From Pseudomonas phage P7869, in sequence record PV173770.1: a DNA stretch of 52,373 bases. One strand, 5' to 3'. The position numbers and the translations under genes are program-made. Below are positions 21,925 to 50,278 of this stretch, in pieces. The first letter of the stretch is position 1. Each line of letters opens with the position of its first letter. The notes under the pieces are model-generated. The model made no database searches. It was given only the letters and a program-made list of their open reading frames with translations, and had not been told where the DNA came from.

Positions 21925-22195
21925 TGACGGAAACGTGAAGCGCGGAAATGGAAAACGTGAAAAGGAATTTCACGATTGGCACAGTTTAAGTGATTGCGGT
22001 CGGCGTAAACTGTTGTAATATAAGCGCTTCTGAGGTGCGAGACAGGATTTAGGTTCCAGCGCCGCAAGGCGTGAGAGTTCGAGTCTCTCCGTCCGCACCA
22101 CCTTCTAAATCAAGTGTTTACAAGCTTCAGCGGCCCTCCTTGTAGATGCGCTGGATTATCAGCGTGAACAGAACGTGAAATGCGACTTTCACGGA
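21925..22195. other. attP region with arm-type repeats (ACGTGAA / TTTCACG) flanking the core
   Basis: ACGTGAA at 21933, 21955, 22163 (GCGTGAAC) and 22175, and its complement TTTCACG at 21968 and 22187. These bracket a tRNA 3' fragment immediately upstream of int. Confidence 0.6.
22045..22100 (+). other. 3' portion of a type-II tRNA (probably tRNA-Leu, anticodon UAG) = attP core
   Basis: Anticodon arm remnant, long variable arm (CGCC-gcaa-GGCG), T-arm GAGAG-TTCGAGT-CTCTC, acceptor CGTCCGC, discriminator A, CCA. The 5' half is absent. Confidence 0.6.
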
Positions 22196-23219
22196 CTTGA
22201 TCAAGCACCCCAACTGCATCCATTACCCTGGCCGGCGCAAGATGGGCATATCGCTCAGTCATCGCGACTGTAGAGTGTCCAAGCAGATCGCGAACGTCTG
22301 CCAGCGGAACTCCTGCGCTAACCAGCCAGGCCGCACAGGTATGGCGCAGGTCGTGAATCGTAAAGTCTACGATCTTCGCTGCCTGACATGCCTGCTTGAA
22401 ACCTGCCGAAAGAGAGACCACTCGATCACCGTTGGCGCGCGCAAAGACCCAGGGGCATTCTGGGCTTGTCTCGGACCTGAATGCCATTCGTCGCTTTAGT
22501 GCTGCCATCGCCCCTTCGTTGATCGGAATGCTCCGGCGCTTTCCTGCCTTCGTGTGGCTAGCCTCCAGATAGATCAGGCGGTTGGCAAAATCCACTCTGC
22601 GCCACTCCAGACCAAGCATTTCCTCCCGCCGGCATCCGGTGTTCACCGCTAGGCGGATGAAGTCCTCAAGCATCGGGCCAAACTTCTGCCCGCGCGCGGC
22701 TCGGCACAGGCCCTCGACCTCTGCCCTGGTCAGCCAACGATCACGCCCCTCGGCCTCGCGCATCTTCCGTCCCTTTACAGGATTCGGGAGACCCCACTCC
22801 AGTTCGGTGTTGCAATGGTTGATAGCCGCGGATAATGCCGCGAGTTCGCGGTTGATGGTTGCCGGGGATGCGCCGGCGTCCAATCTGTGCGTTCCGTAGC
22901 CCCGGATGTCCTGCCCCCCTAGATCGTTGATCACACGTCCGGCAAAATACTCGCGCAGCGGCTTTATGCGGTGCACGGTCGTTTCGTAGCTGCGCTGATG
23001 CTGGCGAGCGTGTTGCAGATACGGAATGATCACCTCCTCAAAGGTCCTGGGCGGATTCACGCCCATTTCCTTTTCCTTCCACGCTTTCGCGCGTTCCTGT
23101 TGCTCTAGTGCTTTCGCCGCCGAGTAGTCGGCAGTTCCAGAAGAGCGTCTAACAAGCTTTCCTGTTGCTGATTTGAAAGAGATCCACCAGTAGGCGGAGT
23201 CGTTTCTCTTGTACGGCAT
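22110..23219 (-). CDS. int: Tyrosine integrase
   Basis: 369 aa with R...HDLRHT...LGHSTVAMTERYAH catalytic motifs. Adjacent to attP. Confidence 0.9.
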   Translation of the reverse strand: MPYKRNDSAYWWISFKSATGKLVRRSSGTADYSAAKALEQQERAKAWKEKEMGVNPPRTFEEVIIPYLQHARQHQRSYETTVHRIKPLREYFAGRVINDLGGQDIRGYGTHRLDAGASPATINRELAALSAAINHCNTELEWGLPNPVKGRKMREAEGRDRWLTRAEVEGLCRAARGQKFGPMLEDFIRLAVNTGCRREEMLGLEWRRVDFANRLIYLEASHTKAGKRRSIPINEGAMAALKRRMAFRSETSPECPWVFARANGDRVVSLSAGFKQACQAAKIVDFTIHDLRHTCAAWLVSAGVPLADVRDLLGHSTVAMTERYAHLAPARVMDAVGVLDQVRESRISRSVHADNPAHLQGGPLKLVNT

Positions 23220-30230: not shown

Positions 30231-30293
30231 GGCTTTCTCCTGGCAAAAGAAAAGGCCCTATTGAGGGCCTTTAATTTCGAGTAACTTGTTGAT

Positions 30294-30578: not shown

Positions 30579-31196
30579 TTACCTCGGGATTGTTTGATAG
30601 GTCTGCTCGACCAGTTCTAGGAAAGCCTCGCGTCGGTCGCGCAGGCGTTGGATTTCATCAGCGCATTCGGATCGATACAGTCGGTGGACGATCAGTTGGC
30701 TGGCCGGAGGGAACTCCGAGCAGTAGCTAATGAAGTCGACCCACTCCCGGCCAGTGCAGTCGAGGTGGCCGATCAGTTGCCAGCGGTACGCAGGATCGAA
30801 GGAATCGCGGCGCAGGGTGGCGTAGTGGACAGCCGCAGTGACGGACTTAATCTCGACCACGCCGTCTTCCATTACGAGGCCATCAGGACTGTCTCCGTAC
30901 AGTTCCCAATCGAAGAACCCGCCGTTGGATACTTCAACGAAGTTCTCGTCCTCGTAGAGCATTCTGGCAACTGGCTCCTGTTCATGGCCGCGCTCAGTGT
31001 GATCATTGGAGAAACTGAAGGACGCCTTCACGCCGGTAGCGCGCTCCAGGGCAATCTGAAGCGCGTACTTCTTTGCCGGCTCGCCGAAGGCCTTGCCCTC
31101 GTTCGCCATGAAAGTCCCGAAACTGGACGCAGTGGCCTTTCCGATTCTCAGCGCCTCCCACACATCACTGTTCTGCGGTACGTCGTGCCATCTCAT
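30579..31196 (-). CDS. YqaJ / lambda-Exo-like PD-(D/E)XK exonuclease
   Basis: N-terminal WEALRIGKATASSFGTF (YqaJ motif) and GDSPDGLV...VEIK catalytic D...E.K. Confidence 0.7.
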   Translation of the reverse strand: MRWHDVPQNSDVWEALRIGKATASSFGTFMANEGKAFGEPAKKYALQIALERATGVKASFSFSNDHTERGHEQEPVARMLYEDENFVEVSNGGFFDWELYGDSPDGLVMEDGVVEIKSVTAAVHYATLRRDSFDPAYRWQLIGHLDCTGREWVDFISYCSEFPPASQLIVHRLYRSECADEIQRLRDRREAFLELVEQTYQTIPR

Positions 31197-34451: not shown

Positions 34452-34475
34452 AAAAAATGCCCGGACTTGCCGGGC
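34452..34475 (-). terminator. Intrinsic terminator on minus strand (GCCCGG-caagt-CCGGGC + T6)
   Basis: Hairpin with an A6 tract on the plus strand (T6 on the minus strand) downstream of gene 34647..35060. Confidence 0.55.
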
Positions 34476-35593: not shown

Positions 35594-36619
35594 TCACTCG
35601 TCGAATTCGACGAACTCGCCCTCGGCACTCAACTGGTACCAGGTGTCCGGCTTTACGCCGTTCTCCCCGACCTTGCTGGCGCGGATATGGATGAGGCGCC
35701 CCTCGTCGTCGCGATGGCAGAGAACGATGGCGCTGCCGGCAGACGCGCGAGCGCGGCCTTCGATACCCAGGGATGCGGCGACGGACTCCTTGCCGCTGAC
35801 CTCGGCTGCCGAGTAGTCGCCGGTGTTCGACGCTGCCGAGCGGTTGCCGGTGTTCGACGCTGCCGAGCGGTTGCCGGCGTTCGACGCTGCCGAGCGGTTG
35901 CCGGTGTTCGACGCTGCCGAGTAGTCGCCGGTGTTGCTGGCTGCCGACTGGTAGCCGGTGTTCGACGCTGCCGATTGGTAGCCGGTGTTCGACGCTGCCG
36001 AGCGGTTGCCGGTGTTCGACGCTGCCGAGTAGTCGCCGGTGTTGCTGGCTGCCGAGCGGTTGCCGGTGTTCGACGCTGCCGAGCGGTTGCCGGTGTTCGA
36101 CGCTGCCGAGCGGTTGCCGGCGTTCGACGCTGCCGAGCGGTTGCCGGTGTTCGACGCTGCCGAGTAGTCGCCGGTGTTCGACGCTGCCGAGCGGCTGCCG
36201 GTGTTGCTGGCTGCCGACTGGTAGCCGGTGTTGCTGGCGGTGTCGCCCACCACCGTCTGCTCAACCGAGCTGTCCAACCGAGCCATGATCCAGTCGATGG
36301 CTCGCGAGATCATGGTCGGCATGCTGATTTCCGCCTCCACCACCAGGGTGGCGCTGGCGATCTTGCTGTCATCGTCGTGACGGCTCAGTTGTCCCGAAGC
36401 CTTCACGATGGCGAATCGGCTGTCGCCTGGGGCGTAGTAGCCGAAGACATCAAGGGGGTACTCGCAGGAGTGGAAGCCCGAAGCACATGCCTCTACCTCA
36501 CCCTCGTGCTTATAGGTTCCGCCGATCTCGAACTGGTAGCCGCGGCAGGTCAGGTCTTGCTTGAACCCCTTGTAAGCGGTCACGACCTCTTCGGACGCAG
36601 CCTTTTTCTTGCTCGCCAT
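35594..36619 (-). CDS. Tandem-repeat protein: globular N-terminal domain + about 16 x 9-aa repeats SAASNTG(NR/DY/YQ) + C-terminal domain
   Basis: Start refined to MASKKK (GGAGAA RBS). Repeat array is in-frame with a 27-nt period. Confidence 0.55.
   Translation of the reverse strand: MASKKKAASEEVVTAYKGFKQDLTCRGYQFEIGGTYKHEGEVEACASGFHSCEYPLDVFGYYAPGDSRFAIVKASGQLSRHDDDSKIASATLVVEAEISMPTMISRAIDWIMARLDSSVEQTVVGDTASNTGYQSAASNTGSRSAASNTGDYSAASNTGNRSAASNAGNRSAASNTGNRSAASNTGNRSAASNTGDYSAASNTGNRSAASNTGYQSAASNTGYQSAASNTGDYSAASNTGNRSAASNAGNRSAASNTGNRSAASNTGDYSAAEVSGKESVAASLGIEGRARASAGSAIVLCHRDDEGRLIHIRASKVGENGVKPDTWYQLSAEGEFVEFDE
35806..36240. repeat. 27-bp tandem repeat array (about 16 copies, units differ at 2 codons; higher-order DY-NR-NR-NR periodicity)
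   Basis: Unit on the plus strand is CGGTTGCCGGTGTTCGACGCTGCCGAG. Both strands show long ORFs. The plus-strand 35687..36637 ORF is a mirror artefact. Confidence 0.8.
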
Positions 36620-36722
36620 CGCGATTCTCCGTTTTAGGTTTGCCCTGGGTTGGGCGATAGGGCGCCCGGATGGGCAAATGGGTTGGAGCTGGTGATGCCC
36701 CGGCGAACCGGGGAGGTGGTAG

Positions 36723-36869
36723 TTAGTCTGAAAATTCAATATCTAATCCATCCAGAACGGCCTGAATGATTTGCGTTAGCTGGTCATTGTCCAGGTCTGA
36801 ACAATCAAACCCGCATTCGCGAAGGCAGTCAGAGACTGCCTCTAGCTGGGATTCAGTCAGGCTAATCAT
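36723..36869 (-). CDS. Small acidic protein (48 aa)
   Basis: GAAGG RBS. ATGA overlap with the upstream small ORF. Confidence 0.25.
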   Translation of the reverse strand: MISLTESQLEAVSDCLRECGFDCSDLDNDQLTQIIQAVLDGLDIEFSD

Positions 36870-37099: not shown

Positions 37100-37699
37100 T
37101 CATTGCTCAAGTTTTCTGGCGCGCTCCTCAAGAGCAGCGCAGATTCGCTTGTCATGCCTATCCAGTAACTCGTATCTCTTGACGGCTTCGCGGAGAACGT
37201 TTGCTTTCGCTGCCCTCCATGCGACATGCGCCGATTCAGGATCAGGAAAAACGCCAATTAGGAATTGCTTCCCATCACAGCCTCTAATCCGTGCCATGAA
37301 GGGGTTGGGTTTACTGCTTTGATTCCGGCTAACGCCTAATGGAAGGTCGCTTTTGCGATTTGCGGGTTCAGGGCAAAGGGCGTTTAGCCATTGCGGAATG
37401 AAGACTGAGGTCTCCGGGCAGTAGAGCTTTTCCCATGGCCTCAAAATGTCCTTGTCCAGGCTATTCCCCTGCCAAGGCTGCTCCTGCATCCAGGCTTTGA
37501 AGGCCATGAATGAGAGCCAGTCGTCTGACATTCGGCAGCCTTCGTAAGAGCGCTGACGGTATGGGCGGCCGCCGTAGCAGCGCTCGATGAGCCCGTGCCA
37601 CCTGTTGTAAAAGTGACAGAGGGCCTTCTTGCCATTCACGACAGACGAGACTTGATAGTCCGCGTCATTGATTCCGATGCCACAAACAAGGCCTCTCAT
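37100..37699 (-). CDS. Putative DNA-binding protein with C-terminal AP2-like domain and Cys/His-rich N-terminus
   Basis: KQFLIGVFPDPESAHVAWRAAKANVLREAVKRY resembles AP2/ERF-like domains found in phage HNH/regulator proteins. Confidence 0.4.
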   Translation of the reverse strand: MRGLVCGIGINDADYQVSSVVNGKKALCHFYNRWHGLIERCYGGRPYRQRSYEGCRMSDDWLSFMAFKAWMQEQPWQGNSLDKDILRPWEKLYCPETSVFIPQWLNALCPEPANRKSDLPLGVSRNQSSKPNPFMARIRGCDGKQFLIGVFPDPESAHVAWRAAKANVLREAVKRYELLDRHDKRICAALEERARKLEQ

Positions 37700-37881
37700 A
37701 AATCCTCCTCATCGCTGACTTCCCAAAGCGCCCTCGTGTGAAGGCGCTTCAGTGAAGCTTTCCCGCCGCGCTGAGCTACTGGCCTCTCGCGCGGCGTAGT
37801 GCTGTCCTCACCACTGCCGATAGCAGCTCGGACTCGATGTGTTTGGCCTTGGGCTTCCCTCGCAGCGCCTTCAATCGGCAT
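37696..37881 (-). CDS. Hypothetical small protein (61 aa), first sizeable ORF of the leftward early operon
   Basis: ORF only. Confidence 0.25.
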   Translation of the reverse strand: MPIEGAAREAQGQTHRVRAAIGSGEDSTTPRERPVAQRGGKASLKRLHTRALWEVSDEEDL

Positions 37882-37998
37882 ACAGCGCTGGTCGTCGGGG
37901 ACGGTGTTTCACTCCACGCTTGACTACAGCCCGGTGGCCTGGTGAGTAGGGCAGGTATGCGTGGGTTGCCGATCCGAACATCGGCTGGGCTTAGTGCT

Positions 37999-38217
37999 TC
38001 ATGGGCTGTTTCCTCCTATTGGTGTCATCTCGGTCGCTTCTCCTTGTCGGGGTTCGTTCCCACTCCTGCGTTTGCTTCTTTGGTCTATTGGCAGGTGACT
38101 TGAGCGACGTCGCGTGCAACGCATGGGCTTGCACGGCTGGACTGTCCGGCCCAGCTCGGGCTGCGTCTTTTGCCTCTCCCAGCGTCTCGCGACGTTGGCG
38201 CAGCAGAGGGTTCCCAA
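37999..38217 (-). CDS. Arg-rich small ORF (up to 72 aa, TTG start) immediately downstream of boxA; weak N-antiterminator-like candidate
   Basis: Very basic (RRWERQ..RRRSS..KRRSG). No good RBS. Could be a GC-bias artefact. Confidence 0.15.
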   Translation of the reverse strand: MGTLCCANVARRWERQKTQPELGRTVQPCKPMRCTRRRSSHLPIDQRSKRRSGNEPRQGEATEMTPIGGNSP

Positions 38218-38233
38218 ATTGTCGAAAGAGCGG
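38211..38233 (-). promoter_or_regulatory. boxA-like element CGCTCTTTCGACAATTTGGGAA in leftward early leader
   Basis: The minus-strand RNA would read GCUCUUU-CG-ACAAUUU. Compare rrn boxA UGCUCUUUAACAAUUU. Located about 50-90 nt downstream of the predicted PL. Confidence 0.45.
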
Positions 38234-38282
38234 TCGGCTCGGTGGCCTGGCGCTGCGTTGTTCTGCGGCGTTGAAGATAAAT

Positions 38283-38324
38283 TAGCAGTGCTGTTATTAA
38301 ATGGTCAATAGCACTGCTGATATT
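38283..38324. promoter_or_regulatory. OL-type operator pair plus leftward early promoter (PL-like)
   Basis: TTAGCAGTGCTGTTAT and AATAGCACTGCTGATAT match three related sites in the cI-cro intergenic region. TTGACC-N17-CTAATT is a sigma70-like element on the minus strand. Confidence 0.5.
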
Positions 38325-38340
38325 TTTCTTGCGCCCATGA

Positions 38341-38362
38341 AAAAGCCCGCGCTAGGCGGGCT
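38341..38362 (-). terminator. Intrinsic terminator (GCCCGC-ctagc-GCGGGC + T5 on minus strand) ending the X3 transcription unit
   Basis: Hairpin flanked by A5 on the plus strand. Confidence 0.6.
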
Positions 38363-38380: not shown

Positions 38381-39034
38381 CTATAGGCCTGGGTAGCCTG
38401 TTGGGTCGAACTCGAAAACGCGCTCTCCTGCCTGGAAGAACTCTATGGCGATCCGGAAAGGCTTGCCCGATTTGACGATGGACTCCAATTGCTTAGCGTC
38501 CCGAACGAACATGAGGTCGCTGTCGTTGGTGGAACTGCGGACCCCGGTCCACTTTTGCGCCTTGCCTTCACCGACCCGAAGAACGAACCCGCAGTCTCGA
38601 TAACCGCACTGCATCTGCCCTTTGGTGATCTTGAGGAAGCCGTCCAGGTCTTTGCCCTTCTTGCGGAAGGTGAGGCTCAGGAACGAACCCCCTGCAACCC
38701 GATATGGGAAATCGAAGAGGGTTGACGTCTTCGACTGGAGCGTGAGCATTGTGGTTACTTCATCACTCATCGGGTCCTTGTATTCATGGCGCTCCCAAGG
38801 GGATTTAGTAGTGCTTGTGGCTGCCGATTGCGAACTGGATGGTCGCGACTGAGCCGCATCGCCGGAGGAGCCGATTCCCGTTCCAAACTGCCAAGCGATA
38901 GGCAGGACGATGAATATCACAAACAGCCAGCCGATGACGCCAACGCTCTTGGGTACCTTTGCACCGCACGATGGGCAGGCTTTGGCTTTGTTCGACACCT
39001 GGGCGCCGCATTCCTTGCATTTAATCAGGGCCAC
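38381..39034 (-). CDS. Membrane-anchored protein: N-terminal zinc ribbon (CxxC...CxxC), 1 TM, about 150-aa periplasmic domain (immunity-region gene X3)
   Basis: GTG start with GAGGAG RBS. Sequence MALIKCKECGAQVSNKAKACPSCGAKV, then TM VGVIGWLFVIFIVLPIAW. Own 213-nt upstream region and own terminator. Confidence 0.5.
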   Translation of the reverse strand: MALIKCKECGAQVSNKAKACPSCGAKVPKSVGVIGWLFVIFIVLPIAWQFGTGIGSSGDAAQSRPSSSQSAATSTTKSPWERHEYKDPMSDEVTTMLTLQSKTSTLFDFPYRVAGGSFLSLTFRKKGKDLDGFLKITKGQMQCGYRDCGFVLRVGEGKAQKWTGVRSSTNDSDLMFVRDAKQLESIVKSGKPFRIAIEFFQAGERVFEFDPTGYPGL

Positions 39035-39242: not shown

Positions 39243-39247
39243 TGTGA

Positions 39248-40562: not shown

Positions 40563-41369
40563 CTACAAATCCCCACCCCGCCAGATGACCTTGCCTATGA
40601 TGCGGTGCTCGTCGTTGTCTTCACGCGACAGGTTACGGTCTGGAAACTCGGCCTTATCCTCGTTGTCACTTCGGATTATCCAGCGGCCAAAAGTGGATGA
40701 AACCAGTCTCTTGACGATGGCTCCATCAGATCCAGCGAGCACGAAGACCTGGTGGTCTTCAGGCTCAATCTTAGATAAATCAACGAGGAGCACATCACCA
40801 TCGTTGATGGTGGGCTCCATGCTCTCGCCATCCGCATAAATCACGGCCAAGCTCTTTGGGCTAACGCCCTTCGCCTTGAGCCATTCCCGCTTAAAAGCCA
40901 AGGTGGCTCGAATCTCAACATGCGGGTTCTCACTTCCTAAACCGGCCGCTGCCTTGGCATCGTACTGAGGCACGAAGGCGTATCGCTCCTCGCTCAGGTC
41001 GGCAGCATCAAGACGATCCGGGAATGGCGCATTCGCGGCTTCGCGCTCAGGCGCCTTGACTCCATCTTGGTGACTGGCGCGCCTGATTCCAGAAGCCAGG
41101 GTTGGGCTCACCTCCGACGGCTCAAACTGAAGATGCTCGGCGAGCCTGACAAGAGCCTCAAGGTTAAGCGCAACGCGTCCAGTCATGTATTGACTGACGG
41201 TGCTTTGCCCGGACTTCCAGCCGCATTTTTCACCCAGCTCAGCCTGGTTCAGTATTGGATTGTCACCGCGTTCACGCGATTCCTTGACTCGCTTCTTGTA
41301 GATGGCCTGGAGGCGCTTAGCGTCGTCCAACTGGGATTGCGACAGAGGGGTTCTTACGGGCTTTTTCAT
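40563..41369 (-). CDS. cI: CI-like repressor: XRE-HTH + LexA/S24 autopeptidase domain
   Basis: N-terminal HTH (LNQAELGEKCGWKSGQSTVSQYMTG). C-terminal GESMEP (Ser nucleophile) ... KR (Lys). Divergent from cro. Start refined to MKKPVRTPL. Confidence 0.85.
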   Translation of the reverse strand: MKKPVRTPLSQSQLDDAKRLQAIYKKRVKESRERGDNPILNQAELGEKCGWKSGQSTVSQYMTGRVALNLEALVRLAEHLQFEPSEVSPTLASGIRRASHQDGVKAPEREAANAPFPDRLDAADLSEERYAFVPQYDAKAAAGLGSENPHVEIRATLAFKREWLKAKGVSPKSLAVIYADGESMEPTINDGDVLLVDLSKIEPEDHQVFVLAGSDGAIVKRLVSSTFGRWIIRSDNEDKAEFPDRNLSREDNDEHRIIGKVIWRGGDL

Positions 41370-41380
41370 CCGAGTGATTA

Positions 41381-41454
41381 AGTAGCAGAGCTGATATTTA
41401 TGCAAACAGCACTGCTGCTGTTTTGCTTGAAAAATCAATAACAGCAGTGCTAAT
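41381..41454. promoter_or_regulatory. OR-type tripartite operator with divergent PRM/PR-like promoters
   Basis: Three related sites (AGTAGCAGAGCTGATAT, AACAGCACTGCTGCTGTT, TAACAGCAGTGCTAAT). TTGAAA-N17-CTAATG points rightward. TTGCAT...TACTTA points leftward and ends about 8 nt before the cI ATG, so the cI mRNA is near-leaderless. Confidence 0.5.
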
Positions 41455-41484
41455 GTGTGTGCAGGACTCCAGCGAGAGCACACC

Positions 41485-41682
41485 ATGAAGACCGTAACCC
41501 TCATTGAATACCTGGCTGAGCACGGCACGCAGGCTGATCTGGCCAAAGGGCTTGGCGTGCAGCAGAGCGCTATCTCTCAGATGCTCCGCGCCAAGCGGAA
41601 CATAACCATCACGATCCGTGACGACGGGAAGTTGGAGGCTGTTGAAACGCGGCCGATCCCGGCGCGCAAGGCCGTTGCCTGA
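41485..41682 (+). CDS. cro: Cro-like HTH repressor (YdaS/Cro family)
   Basis: 65 aa. HTH in QADLAKGLGVQQSAISQMLR. Divergent from cI. Confidence 0.7.
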   Translation: MKTVTLIEYLAEHGTQADLAKGLGVQQSAISQMLRAKRNITITIRDDGKLEAVETRPIPARKAVA

Positions 41683-41717: not shown

Positions 41718-42290
41718 ATGCGAAGCGAATCGCACACCCTGATCTCCACACTGCTCAGCGTGGTGAACCAATGGCGCCGCCGCGAAGGCTGGAGCCGCGA
41801 GACCGTGGTCCAGCACATCGTGGAGGCTCACGAACGCATCAACGCTCATATCGCCACCGGAATCGTATTCGACCCTCCCTCGCGTGATGCGATGGACAGG
41901 ATGAAGGCGAATGCCGATCGGGTGTTCCGCTGGCTGGATGACTCCACGAAGGACAACAACTTGCTTCCGGCAAATTTCCTGCCTTCGATCCTGGCCGCTC
42001 TCCCGAACGATCTGAAGATTCAGGCTTTGGGCGACCTGCTGACTCCGGTCGGGGTATCGGTTCGCCTGATCGATGGAGAGGGCGGCGAGCGGGAAGTGCT
42101 CTGCATGCTCCGATCCCTGATCAAAGAGAACGGTGAAGCACAGCAGGCAATTGCGAGCCTGGTTGATGGCGCTGATGAAGGTGAGCTGCAAGAGGCTCAC
42201 CGTGAACTCTCTGAGTCTCGCGCCGCGACAGAAGAGGCTCTGCGGATGATTGACCAGATGCGACGCAAGCCTCGCCTGGTGAGCGTCTGA
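41718..42290 (+). CDS. YdaT-like regulatory protein (cII-position)
   Basis: ANADRVFRWLDDSTKDNNLLPANFLPSILAAL parallels the YdaT family (IFRWVEKDT...). Follows the YdaS/Cro-like gene, as in ydaS-ydaT pairs. Confidence 0.45.
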   Translation: MRSESHTLISTLLSVVNQWRRREGWSRETVVQHIVEAHERINAHIATGIVFDPPSRDAMDRMKANADRVFRWLDDSTKDNNLLPANFLPSILAALPNDLKIQALGDLLTPVGVSVRLIDGEGGEREVLCMLRSLIKENGEAQQAIASLVDGADEGELQEAHRELSESRAATEEALRMIDQMRRKPRLVSV

Positions 42291-48257: not shown

Positions 48258-48836
48258 ATGATCTACACCAGCATTCGGTCGGCAGTCGTCTCTGCCCTGG
48301 CGGCGGAAACCATCGACAACACTGCAAAGCAAGCCTGGCAGAAGCTCTACCAGCCAGGGTATGCCGACAGTGAGGGTTTAGCTGGGCTGATCAGGGGCTC
48401 GAACACTTCAGGCATCAAGCGCATCGACGCTGATTGCTGGGTGCACGCCCGGCTGCACAGCCAGCTCAAGCCGCGGCACTGGAACGCGCTTGTGGCGAAG
48501 TACAGCACTCACCGCGAGAAGAAGAAGGCCGCAATCGAGGCGCTTATCCCCCTGATCGCCACCCCGGCGCCGCGCAGATTCCTCGGGATGGCAGTCTATA
48601 CCTGGGCTATTCCCAAGCTGAAGGGGGCAGAAGGCAAGCGCTCTACCGACATGATCATTCTCGACGCCGTGTTCTACGACATGAACAACTGGGAATCTGA
48701 AGGCCGCCCCGAACAGACGAGGCGCCGCTGGAGGGCTGGAATCCACAGCGTGCTGAACGAAATGCTCAAGGAGGCAGAGCTGGCTGCGGGTGAAATCCTG
48801 ATGGAGGAGGGCATCATCGTCGGAGAGGCTGCGTAG
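48258..48836 (+). CDS. Hypothetical protein (192 aa); positional candidate for late-gene activator/antiterminator
   Basis: Last gene before a 600-nt leader that ends in an intrinsic terminator. Sequence unrecognised. Confidence 0.4.
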   Translation: MIYTSIRSAVVSALAAETIDNTAKQAWQKLYQPGYADSEGLAGLIRGSNTSGIKRIDADCWVHARLHSQLKPRHWNALVAKYSTHREKKKAAIEALIPLIATPAPRRFLGMAVYTWAIPKLKGAEGKRSTDMIILDAVFYDMNNWESEGRPEQTRRRWRAGIHSVLNEMLKEAELAAGEILMEEGIIVGEAA

Positions 48837-50035: not shown

Positions 50036-50112
<77 letters not shown>

Positions 50113-50123
50113 ACTCGATTCAA

Positions 50124-50198
50124 TGACGTGTAGCTCAGAGGTAGAGCGGTCGGCTGTTACCCGACTGGTCGATGGTTCGATCCCATCCGCGTCAGCCA
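50124..50198 (+). tRNA. tRNA-Asn (anticodon GUU)
   Basis: 75 nt. Starts with U1 as in bacterial tRNA-Asn. Anticodon stem GTCGG/CCGAC, loop CTGTTAC, T-arm GATGG-TTCGATC-CCATC, discriminator G, CCA encoded. Confidence 0.7.
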
Positions 50199-50202
50199 AT
50201 AA

Positions 50203-50278
50203 GCCGGTATGGCGCAACAGGGAGCGCTGCTGATTTGTAATCAGAGGGTTGCGGGTTTGACTCCTGCTGCCGGCACCA
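50203..50278 (+). tRNA. tRNA-Thr (anticodon UGU)
   Basis: 76 nt. Acceptor GCCGGTA/TGCCGGC, anticodon loop TTTGTAA, T-loop TTTGACT (atypical), discriminator A, CCA encoded. Confidence 0.6.

Follow-up and report, generated by a model that had tools for sequence, protein, structure and literature searches.

In the leaders of bacterial ribosomal RNA (rrn) operons, a boxB hairpin, boxA and boxC act together with NusB, NusE, NusA, NusG, SuhB and S4. A lone boxA, which relies on host factors only and has been repeatedly acquired by mobile or accessory loci, shields the long non-coding transcripts of clustered regularly interspaced short palindromic repeat (CRISPR) arrays from Rho (Stringer et al. 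2020, PMC7665894). In lambda, the boxA of nutL lies about 40 nucleotides (nt) into the leftward leader, 5′ of its hairpin, and belongs to the N system, and in HK022 the put element, a two-stem structure present in both early operons, works on RNA polymerase directly, with no Nus factors involved. Lambda-like phages of Pseudomonas aeruginosa (D3, phi297, YA3, and numerous prophages found in clinical strains) carry cI, Cro, CII, and Q-like functions but have yielded no N homologue so far, and how their early left operon escapes termination has been left open. Here, we describe a boxA-like element in the leader of the leftward early promoter (PL) of Pseudomonas phage P7869 (sequence record PV173770.1), a lambda-like (D3-type) P. 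aeruginosa prophage whose whole stretch of 52,373 nt is hereafter called the window. As far as can be judged from sequence, this early-leader boxA resembles the host rrn signal in arrangement and conservation, goes with neither N nor nutR nor a demonstrable boxB, and offers a testable answer to the termination problem. We give about an even chance to the reading that it is a host Nus-factor boxA, i.e., an anti-Rho element of the rrn and CRISPR type at the 5′ end of the PL transcript. In the open literature, no earlier account of boxA or nut was found for Pseudomonas phages (a mention in a subscription journal is possible). The YA3 authors found no N homologue and put PL at another place, and boxA was not mentioned in the retrieved passages of their paper (PMC7326022).

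The leftward promoter is a genuine lambda-like PL with its operator (OL), because three further copies of its operator motif stand between the cI-like repressor gene and cro. The features from the promoter to the boxA are as follows:

38308–38323: distal OL operator copy, plus strand ATAGCACTGCTGATAT, sharing one base with the −35 hexamer
38279–38308, minus strand: PL promoter, with −35 TTGACC (38308–38303), a 17-nt spacer, and −10 CTAATT (38285–38280)
38282–38297: proximal OL operator copy, plus strand TTAGCAGTGCTGTTAT, within the spacer and extending into the −10 hexamer
38251–38270, minus strand: 5′-proximal leader hairpin CGC-C-GC / AGAACAAC / GC-A-GCG
38232–38250, minus strand: conserved C-rich linker CCAGGCCACCGAGCCGACC, found with boxA in every related leader listed
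38219–38231, minus strand: boxA-like element GCTCTTTCGACAA (= GCUCUUUCGACAA)

The operator is a site of about 16 nt around AGCAGTGCT/AGCACTGCT, present in two copies at PL and in three further copies (41382–41397, 41406–41421, and 41440–41456) between the repressor gene and cro. With up to one mismatch, the operator 9-mer matched the window 31 times versus 15.4 expected (0 of 100 shuffles as high). The distal OL copy is tied to the cI–cro intergenic region by repeat families D1/D2 and inverted pair I5, and the arm pair 38306–38324/41437–41455 is 89% complementary across 19 nt. The rightward promoter (PR) is built like PL (TTGAAA, 17 nt, CTAATG). An original prediction, made from the letters of the window alone, had proposed a lambda-like PL/OL with a TTGACC-N17-CTAATT promoter overlapping two operator copies; both were present as described, with operators shared with the cI–cro region and with a repressor, a lambda-family Cro, and a CII-like protein identified. 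The −10 element can also be read as TAATTT with an 18-nt spacer. Transcription would start near 38272, and the boxA, which had been placed 50–90 nt downstream of the promoter, begins 48 nt past the −10 hexamer, at about +41 from this putative start.

Within the window alone, the boxA match is not significant: at up to three mismatches there was one match versus 2.7 expected, and CGCTCTTT occurred three times versus 2.6 expected. The significance of the element comes from comparison with relatives. A search of viral contigs, which fixed only the upstream linker and GCTCTT and left the 3′ half of boxA free, yielded at least 156 true leaders; all counts below refer to the matches listed, and the variant counts are lower bounds that are partly seeded by the window's own variant. 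Every leader reads GCTCTTT(A/C/CG/TG)A(C/A/T)AA at the same place, with variation limited to positions 8–10 and with GCTCTTT and A..AA fixed. The exact 19-mer of the window occurred in 65 viral contigs, and the variants comprised CGACAA (at least 65, as in GCTCTTTCGACAA), CACAA (at least 39, GCTCTTTCACAA), AACAA (at least 39), and four rare ones. The perfect core GCTCTTTAACAA (AACAA) is found in at least 39 viral leaders including D3-type ones and also in the GenBank D3 record (L078). A perfect match to the consensus was present in 42 of the 156 listed leaders (39 AACAA and 3 AAAAA). The boxA proposed for the early leader is thus present and conserved. All 61 phage records resembling the region came from Pseudomonas phages.

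The conserved block, consisting of linker and boxA, stands behind about 29 promoter/operator classes and in front of at least 15 unrelated leader classes. Across 15 leader classes, the sequences agree up to and including the final base of the classical 12-nt boxA (...ACAA) and diverge completely from there on. A −35 TTGAC was present in 81 of 96 distinct upstream 75-mers, lying 59–64 nt before the block in 71 of these 81, and the boxA keeps a fixed transcript position of about +40 behind about 29 different promoters. The first credible gene follows 180–590 nt past boxA in every leader class (only 182 nt in the shortest), it differs between the classes, and it differs even among members of one class. 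In lambda, boxA is likewise kept across immunity types with divergent sequence past it.

A hairpin ending 2–4 nt before AGGCC was present in all 65 distinct 5′ segments of relatives (mean z-score −1.67), and the hairpin of the window is the weakest version of this feature, which is conserved by position. Its stems have at least eight different sequences (e.g., GCCAGC/GCTGGC, GCCGC/GCGGC, GCCCA/TGGGC, CGGCA/TGCCG, and ATTCTGCG/CGCAGAAT), i.e., a hairpin with a covarying stem always stands just 5′ of the block. The leader therefore has the order hairpin, 19-nt C-rich linker, boxA, which is that of rrn leaders (boxB, then boxA) and not that of lambda, where the hairpin lies 3′ of boxA. Linker variation was limited to GACC versus GC before boxA, a constancy that is partly fixed by the search patterns.

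Pseudomonas-type rrn leaders were taken from metagenome contigs bearing a P. aeruginosa-type 16S marker. In all ten contigs with enough flank, boxA lay 228–250 nt upstream of the marker. These leaders (TGCTCTTTAACAAG) read TGCTCTTTAACAAGTCG, CGCTCTTTAACAAC, or CGCTCTTTAAAAAA, followed by a boxC-like TTCGTGTGGGT, and the host rrn leader folds with a hairpin ahead of an unpaired boxA. The perfect phage core GCTCTTTAACAA is identical to the Pseudomonas-type rrn boxA, i.e., the 12-nt core of the rrn signal recurs unchanged in D3-type phages, and the AAAAA variant is common to both. The gamma-proteobacterial boxA consensus is GYTCTTTAANA, and in pseudomonads it is used upstream of ribH–nusB (PMC5725501). 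The phage boxA family fits this consensus. The minus-strand leader 38232–38213 reads CGCTCTTTCGACAATTTGGG (= CGCUCUUUCGACAAUUUGGG) and is unique in the window; the shared ACAATTT to which the original prediction pointed holds for the rrn leader of E. coli (5,426 genomes with a median of 7 copies each) and fails for the Pseudomonas-type rrn leader, which reads GCTCTTTAACAAGTCG. Like the rrn signal, the phage boxA lies in the first ~50 nt of a long untranslated transcript, with a hairpin 5′ of it and with no dedicated phage protein evident. Unlike rrn leaders, the phage leader has no boxC-like GUGUGGG and has a 19-nt C-rich linker between hairpin and boxA, and its transcript is an early leader followed by protein genes under a repressor-controlled promoter.

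These comparisons also bear on whether the likeness to boxA is non-functional, the block being instead a recombination linker, a site on the DNA that a protein recognises, or a signal for RNA stability or processing. Invariance of the 19-nt linker equals or exceeds that of boxA and the two are always found together, the block sits exactly at mosaic junctions, phages of the JBD44 type (see below) do without it, and the match lacks significance in the window by itself. The variation nevertheless obeys the boxA consensus, with AACAA and AAAAA also occurring in Pseudomonas-type rrn leaders, conservation stops at the last boxA base in 15 leader classes, and the transcript position is held behind about 29 different promoters. 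We therefore regard a non-functional likeness as quite improbable.

If the boxA is a host Nus-factor element, RNA polymerase would start near 38272 once the repressor leaves OL, the small 5′ hairpin would form in the nascent RNA, and the C-rich linker and boxA (38231–38219) would then be exposed. Host NusB–NusE(S10) would bind boxA and, with NusA, NusG, and SuhB, form a Rho-resistant elongation complex as on rRNA operons and CRISPR arrays. Transcription would thus cross the ~520 nt of untranslated leader to the first gene at 37699 and proceed into the leftward early operon, with neither a phage N protein nor a boxB partner needed. The rightward operon would need no boxA, because translation of cro begins about 25 nt past the PR start. 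As in CRISPR arrays, a lone boxA precedes a long non-coding stretch that Rho could otherwise attack and would likewise depend on host factors only and have been acquired repeatedly by mobile loci; unlike in CRISPR arrays, the RNA to be protected is a PL leader of 230–630 nt followed by an operon. The locus also resembles HK022 put in having a cis-acting RNA signal just past the early promoter that would work without a phage antiterminator protein; it differs in that the conserved part is a single-stranded host-type boxA and in that it occurs in the left operon only. No put-type element was indicated by Rfam in the region and nothing comparable was found past PR, although no explicit comparison with put was made. 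If correct, host Nus factors alone would constitute a third route of early antitermination in phages beside N and put, and prophage induction in an important pathogen would depend on NusB, NusE, and SuhB as host factors.

Several observations weigh against a host Nus-factor boxA. The window's own element GCTCTTTCGACAA departs from the rrn consensus GCUCUUUAACAA by one inserted base and one mismatch, with A8 lost. The boxC-like GUGUGGG, which is present in the host rrn leader, was absent from the 120 nt past boxA in every one of the 15 leader classes; rrn antitermination in E. coli does not depend on boxC. For boxA, the predicted probability of being unpaired (0.63 versus 0.55–0.57 in the flanks) is uninformative. 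C/G reaches 1.9 in C-rich windows of the leader (38272–38246 and 38025–37960), an observation in favour; its overall C/G is about 1.0, i.e., it is not a strong Rho substrate throughout. Leaders of the JBD44 type, found in a minority of related phages (7 viral contigs with 4 promoter/operator sequence types; JBD44 itself has been deposited as a complete phage genome), are devoid of the entire block, are similarly long, and keep the structured RNA domain described below as module B; the boxA is therefore not indispensable. Finally, the leftward gene block headed by boxA spans about 16 kb to the integrase gene and contains intrinsic terminators:

34459–34475, minus strand: intrinsic terminator inside the leftward block
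30251–30272, minus strand: intrinsic terminator inside the leftward block
30579–31196: exonuclease gene of the leftward block
22110–23219: integrase gene at the end of the leftward block

Both terminators sit between PL and the exonuclease and integrase genes, where internal promoters may also lie. Complexes formed by Nus factors only read through intrinsic terminators poorly, and a Nus-only model therefore leaves expression of the exonuclease and integrase from PL unexplained. Since such complexes are unlikely to pass these terminators efficiently, a phage cofactor, N-like or other, retains a small share of the probability. Processive antitermination of the leftward operon had been suggested as either N-like or dependent on host NusB/NusE; the latter option fits best, and the former was not supported (see below).

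In the JBD44-type leader itself (L282 2150–2612; L283–L289), the 5′ hairpin runs directly into AACAAGCCGGAGGCTCGCCGG, and the change looks like a clean 27-nt replacement relative to L261-type leaders.

The leader (38272–37700, about 570 nt) is a mosaic, with about 520 nt from boxA to the first credible start codon and a mosaic junction at 38208/38207. Its parts are as follows:

38208–38218, minus strand: extension of the conserved block, TTTGGGAACCC, in leader classes 1 and 2 only
38018–38207, minus strand: module A2, near-invariant in 50 relatives, containing a hairpin CGUC-GCGA-GACG (38194–38183) and the ORF considered next
37999–38217, minus strand: open reading frame (ORF) of 72 codons named in the original prediction, TTG start, Arg-rich
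37991–38017, minus strand: minigene with AGGAGG (38017–38012), AUG (38002–38000), two sense codons, and UAA (37993–37991)
37790–38017, minus strand: module B, a structured RNA domain, including a hairpin GCCGAU/AUCGGC (37985–37968)
37719–37757, minus strand: long hairpin (RNAfold) of 17 pairs with a one-base bulge, abutting the Shine-Dalgarno of the first gene
37100–37699, minus strand: HNH-endonuclease-like protein (phrog_953, E = 3.6e-77), the first translated gene of the PL operon, not N-like, with its GAGGAGG Shine-Dalgarno at 37710–37704

The layout of the locus is otherwise that of lambda, with cI, accessory genes, a terminator, OL/PL, and then boxA about 40 nt into the leader, and with terminators further along a long leftward operon ending at int. 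A lambda-type N system would accordingly read the boxA as one half of nutL, the hairpin CGUC-GCGA-GACG as boxB, and an Arg-rich peptide of module A2 as the N analogue that passes intrinsic terminators. The mosaic boundary directly past boxA matches lambdoid phages with a common boxA and differing boxB and N, the hairpin has a GNRA tetraloop and lies 24 nt past boxA, frame 1 is open across module A2 in all full-length type-1 relatives (one more is cut by the contig end), and the downstream intrinsic terminators would demand a stronger antiterminator than Nus factors alone. The candidate starts of such a peptide, TTG at 38217 or ATG at 38128 (giving MRCTRRR...), are both doubtful; neither is preceded by a Shine-Dalgarno.

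The ORF itself exists, is Arg-rich, and begins weakly as the original prediction had noted, with its TTG inside the boxA flank and no Shine-Dalgarno before it, whereas genuine nearby genes have GAGGAGG or AGGAGG. There was no sign that it encodes a protein. In 34 aligned relatives, none of the six frames showed a coding signal (synonymous to non-synonymous changes: forward frames 8:25, 10:23, 10:23; reverse frames 9:24, 14:19, 7:26), and about half of the relatives carry R-to-C and K-to-E changes within the Arg-rich stretch. The ORF end shifts from 61 to 245 codons among relatives, set by the downstream fusion. No Pfam or PHROG match was found, gene callers almost never call the ORF, and among 5.8 billion proteins it fell into three tiny clusters of 94–99% identity, without distant relatives. 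At 12% T (versus about 20% in the neighbouring genes measured, a low-T repeat protein apart), the leader is so poor in U that open frames are likely to arise by chance. On this evidence, the ORF appears to be non-coding, and the leader is better described as conserved non-coding RNA with a minigene and a structured RNA domain.

A gene elsewhere that would serve in its place was not evident either, as none of the ten downstream proteins of the window was linked to the type-1 leader (best 6 of 19), and the shortest leader class, at 182 nt, has no room for an N analogue. The candidate boxB hairpin at 38194–38183 is invariant in 50 of 50 type-1 relatives and is replaced by unrelated sequence in other classes. 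The right-arm search proposed by the original prediction was negative: a second boxA was absent from the window, also when two mismatches were allowed, and the 156 listed related loci (1.36 Mb, with 111 loci reaching 2 kb or more past PL on its upstream side, where the immunity region lies) gave one extra match versus 1.2 expected, located in tandem within a left leader. Unlike lambda nutL/N, the P7869 leader therefore has no N-like gene, no demonstrable boxB, and no nutR in the rightward operon, and it is untranslated and 2–3 times as long as that of lambda. N-style antitermination thus found no support in a coding signature, an N-like family, a linked gene, or a second boxA, and we consider a lambda-type N system unlikely.

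The tandem match is found in contig L259, where the second copy, CATCGCTCTTTAACAACCTGAAGACG, lies 221 nt past the first. The leaders are also the site of probable annotation artefacts. In the YA3 record, a 113-codon ORF (L067 3976–4317) starts in the predicted −10 hexamer, upstream of the likely transcription start, and in LC3I3 a coding sequence for a hypothetical protein (L066 4458–4838) runs on the opposite strand over the leader. The GenBank records of D3, phi297, LC3I3, YA3, 5371, and JBD44 carry over the leader either nothing or ORFs that we judged spurious; annotators now fill about 0.5 kb of leader with spurious ORFs.

Comparative folding points to RNA structure in module B. RNAalifold gave 58 pairs, nine of them with changes on both sides (compensatory), with 99% of cells paired; the covariation score of 0.131 versus 0.072 in shuffles was reached by none of 500, and slid controls gave 0–3 such pairs. 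We are moderately confident that module B is a structured RNA, a prediction to which only about three haplotypes contribute. Single-sequence folding carried no signal (z-scores of −2.3 for the whole leader, −0.03 for module A2, and +1.1 for module B), and Rfam gave no match in the leader at gathering or permissive thresholds. The Shine-Dalgarno and AUG of the minigene are invariant in 31 distinct relatives with one or two varying sense codons (MKH, MQY, MQS, MQ), and the minigene is also present in JBD44, which lacks boxA. The lambda bar minigenes, known for peptidyl-tRNA drop-off, are similar in being two- or three-codon minigenes with a strong Shine-Dalgarno in the PL transcript, as at 38017–37991 here; their sequence and codons differ. 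By analogy with the lambda N leader, the long hairpin at 37757–37719 may serve as an RNase III site or in the control of translation.

Given this structure, boxA might recruit the Nus complex mainly for a task other than antitermination, either RNA chaperoning or looping to fold the leader, as happens on rRNA, or control of minigene or first-gene translation, in the manner of the suhB 5′ untranslated region (UTR). Nus complexes repress suhB via a boxA in its 5′ UTR (PMC5725501), module B structure is backed by covariation, and a conserved minigene and a large hairpin stand ahead of the first gene. The distances are much longer than the ~50 nt of the suhB-type survey (boxA to minigene about 215 nt, boxA to first gene about 520 nt), JBD44-type leaders hold module B without boxA, and the folding energies of modules A2 and B are not unusual, so that we hold this reading to be improbable. 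A wider proposal is that D3-type PL leaders form a mosaic family of U-poor structured RNAs of 230–630 nt that are functional products (e.g., regulatory or anti-defence), made and folded, via a host-identical boxA, by borrowed rRNA-type Nus antitermination and chaperone machinery of the host without N; we offer it as speculation that is more likely wrong than right by a wide measure.

Leader RNAs of all 15 related classes are U-poor (9–18% T), a composition that would disfavour intrinsic terminators and stop codons. Hairpins of different sequence occur in relatives, D3 included, at the position of 37757–37719. Module B also stands as a module of its own in JBD44-, DO4-, and JBD88b-type phages and matches no Rfam family. 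An antisense gene or RNA was also weighed for this region. The antisense strand of the leader (38147–38163, plus strand) has a terminator-like hairpin CGGCCCAGCTCGGGCTG followed by CGTCTTTTGC.

The gene order around PL is analogous to that of lambda. The surrounding features are as follows:

38340–38361, minus strand: intrinsic terminator, GCCCGCCTAGCGCGGGC then TTTTT, read from the sequence
38381–39034, minus strand: gene with a terminator of its own, encoding a zinc-ribbon protein that has a hydrophobic, possibly membrane-spanning stretch
40563–41369, minus strand: cI-type repressor ORF with HTH_3 and Peptidase_S24 domains
41485–41682, plus strand: Cro ORF of the lambda family (PF09048)
41718–42290: ORF for a CII-like protein

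The terminator at 38361–38340 ends the zinc-ribbon gene upstream and insulates PL, and the same terminator precedes PL in related loci. The region further to the right of the CII-like gene encodes an O-like initiator, a primase/helicase, NinB, and NinG. No late antiterminator (Q) was recognised at its expected position in the window, where a 192-amino-acid ORF (48258–48836, plus strand) matches only a PHROG of unknown function. Three genes occupy the position of lambda rex between cI and PL (40516–38381, minus strand), encoding a phrog_2017 protein, a DUF1828 protein (phrog_1960, followed by a terminator at 39243–39224), and the zinc-ribbon protein; they look like morons expressed in the lysogen. 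In the left operon, a protein of 381 amino acids (35594–36739, minus strand) contains about 20 repeats, in tandem, that follow the pattern SAASNTG(N/D/Y)(R/Y/Q), and three tRNA genes lie past the nin-like region (50036–50275, plus strand).

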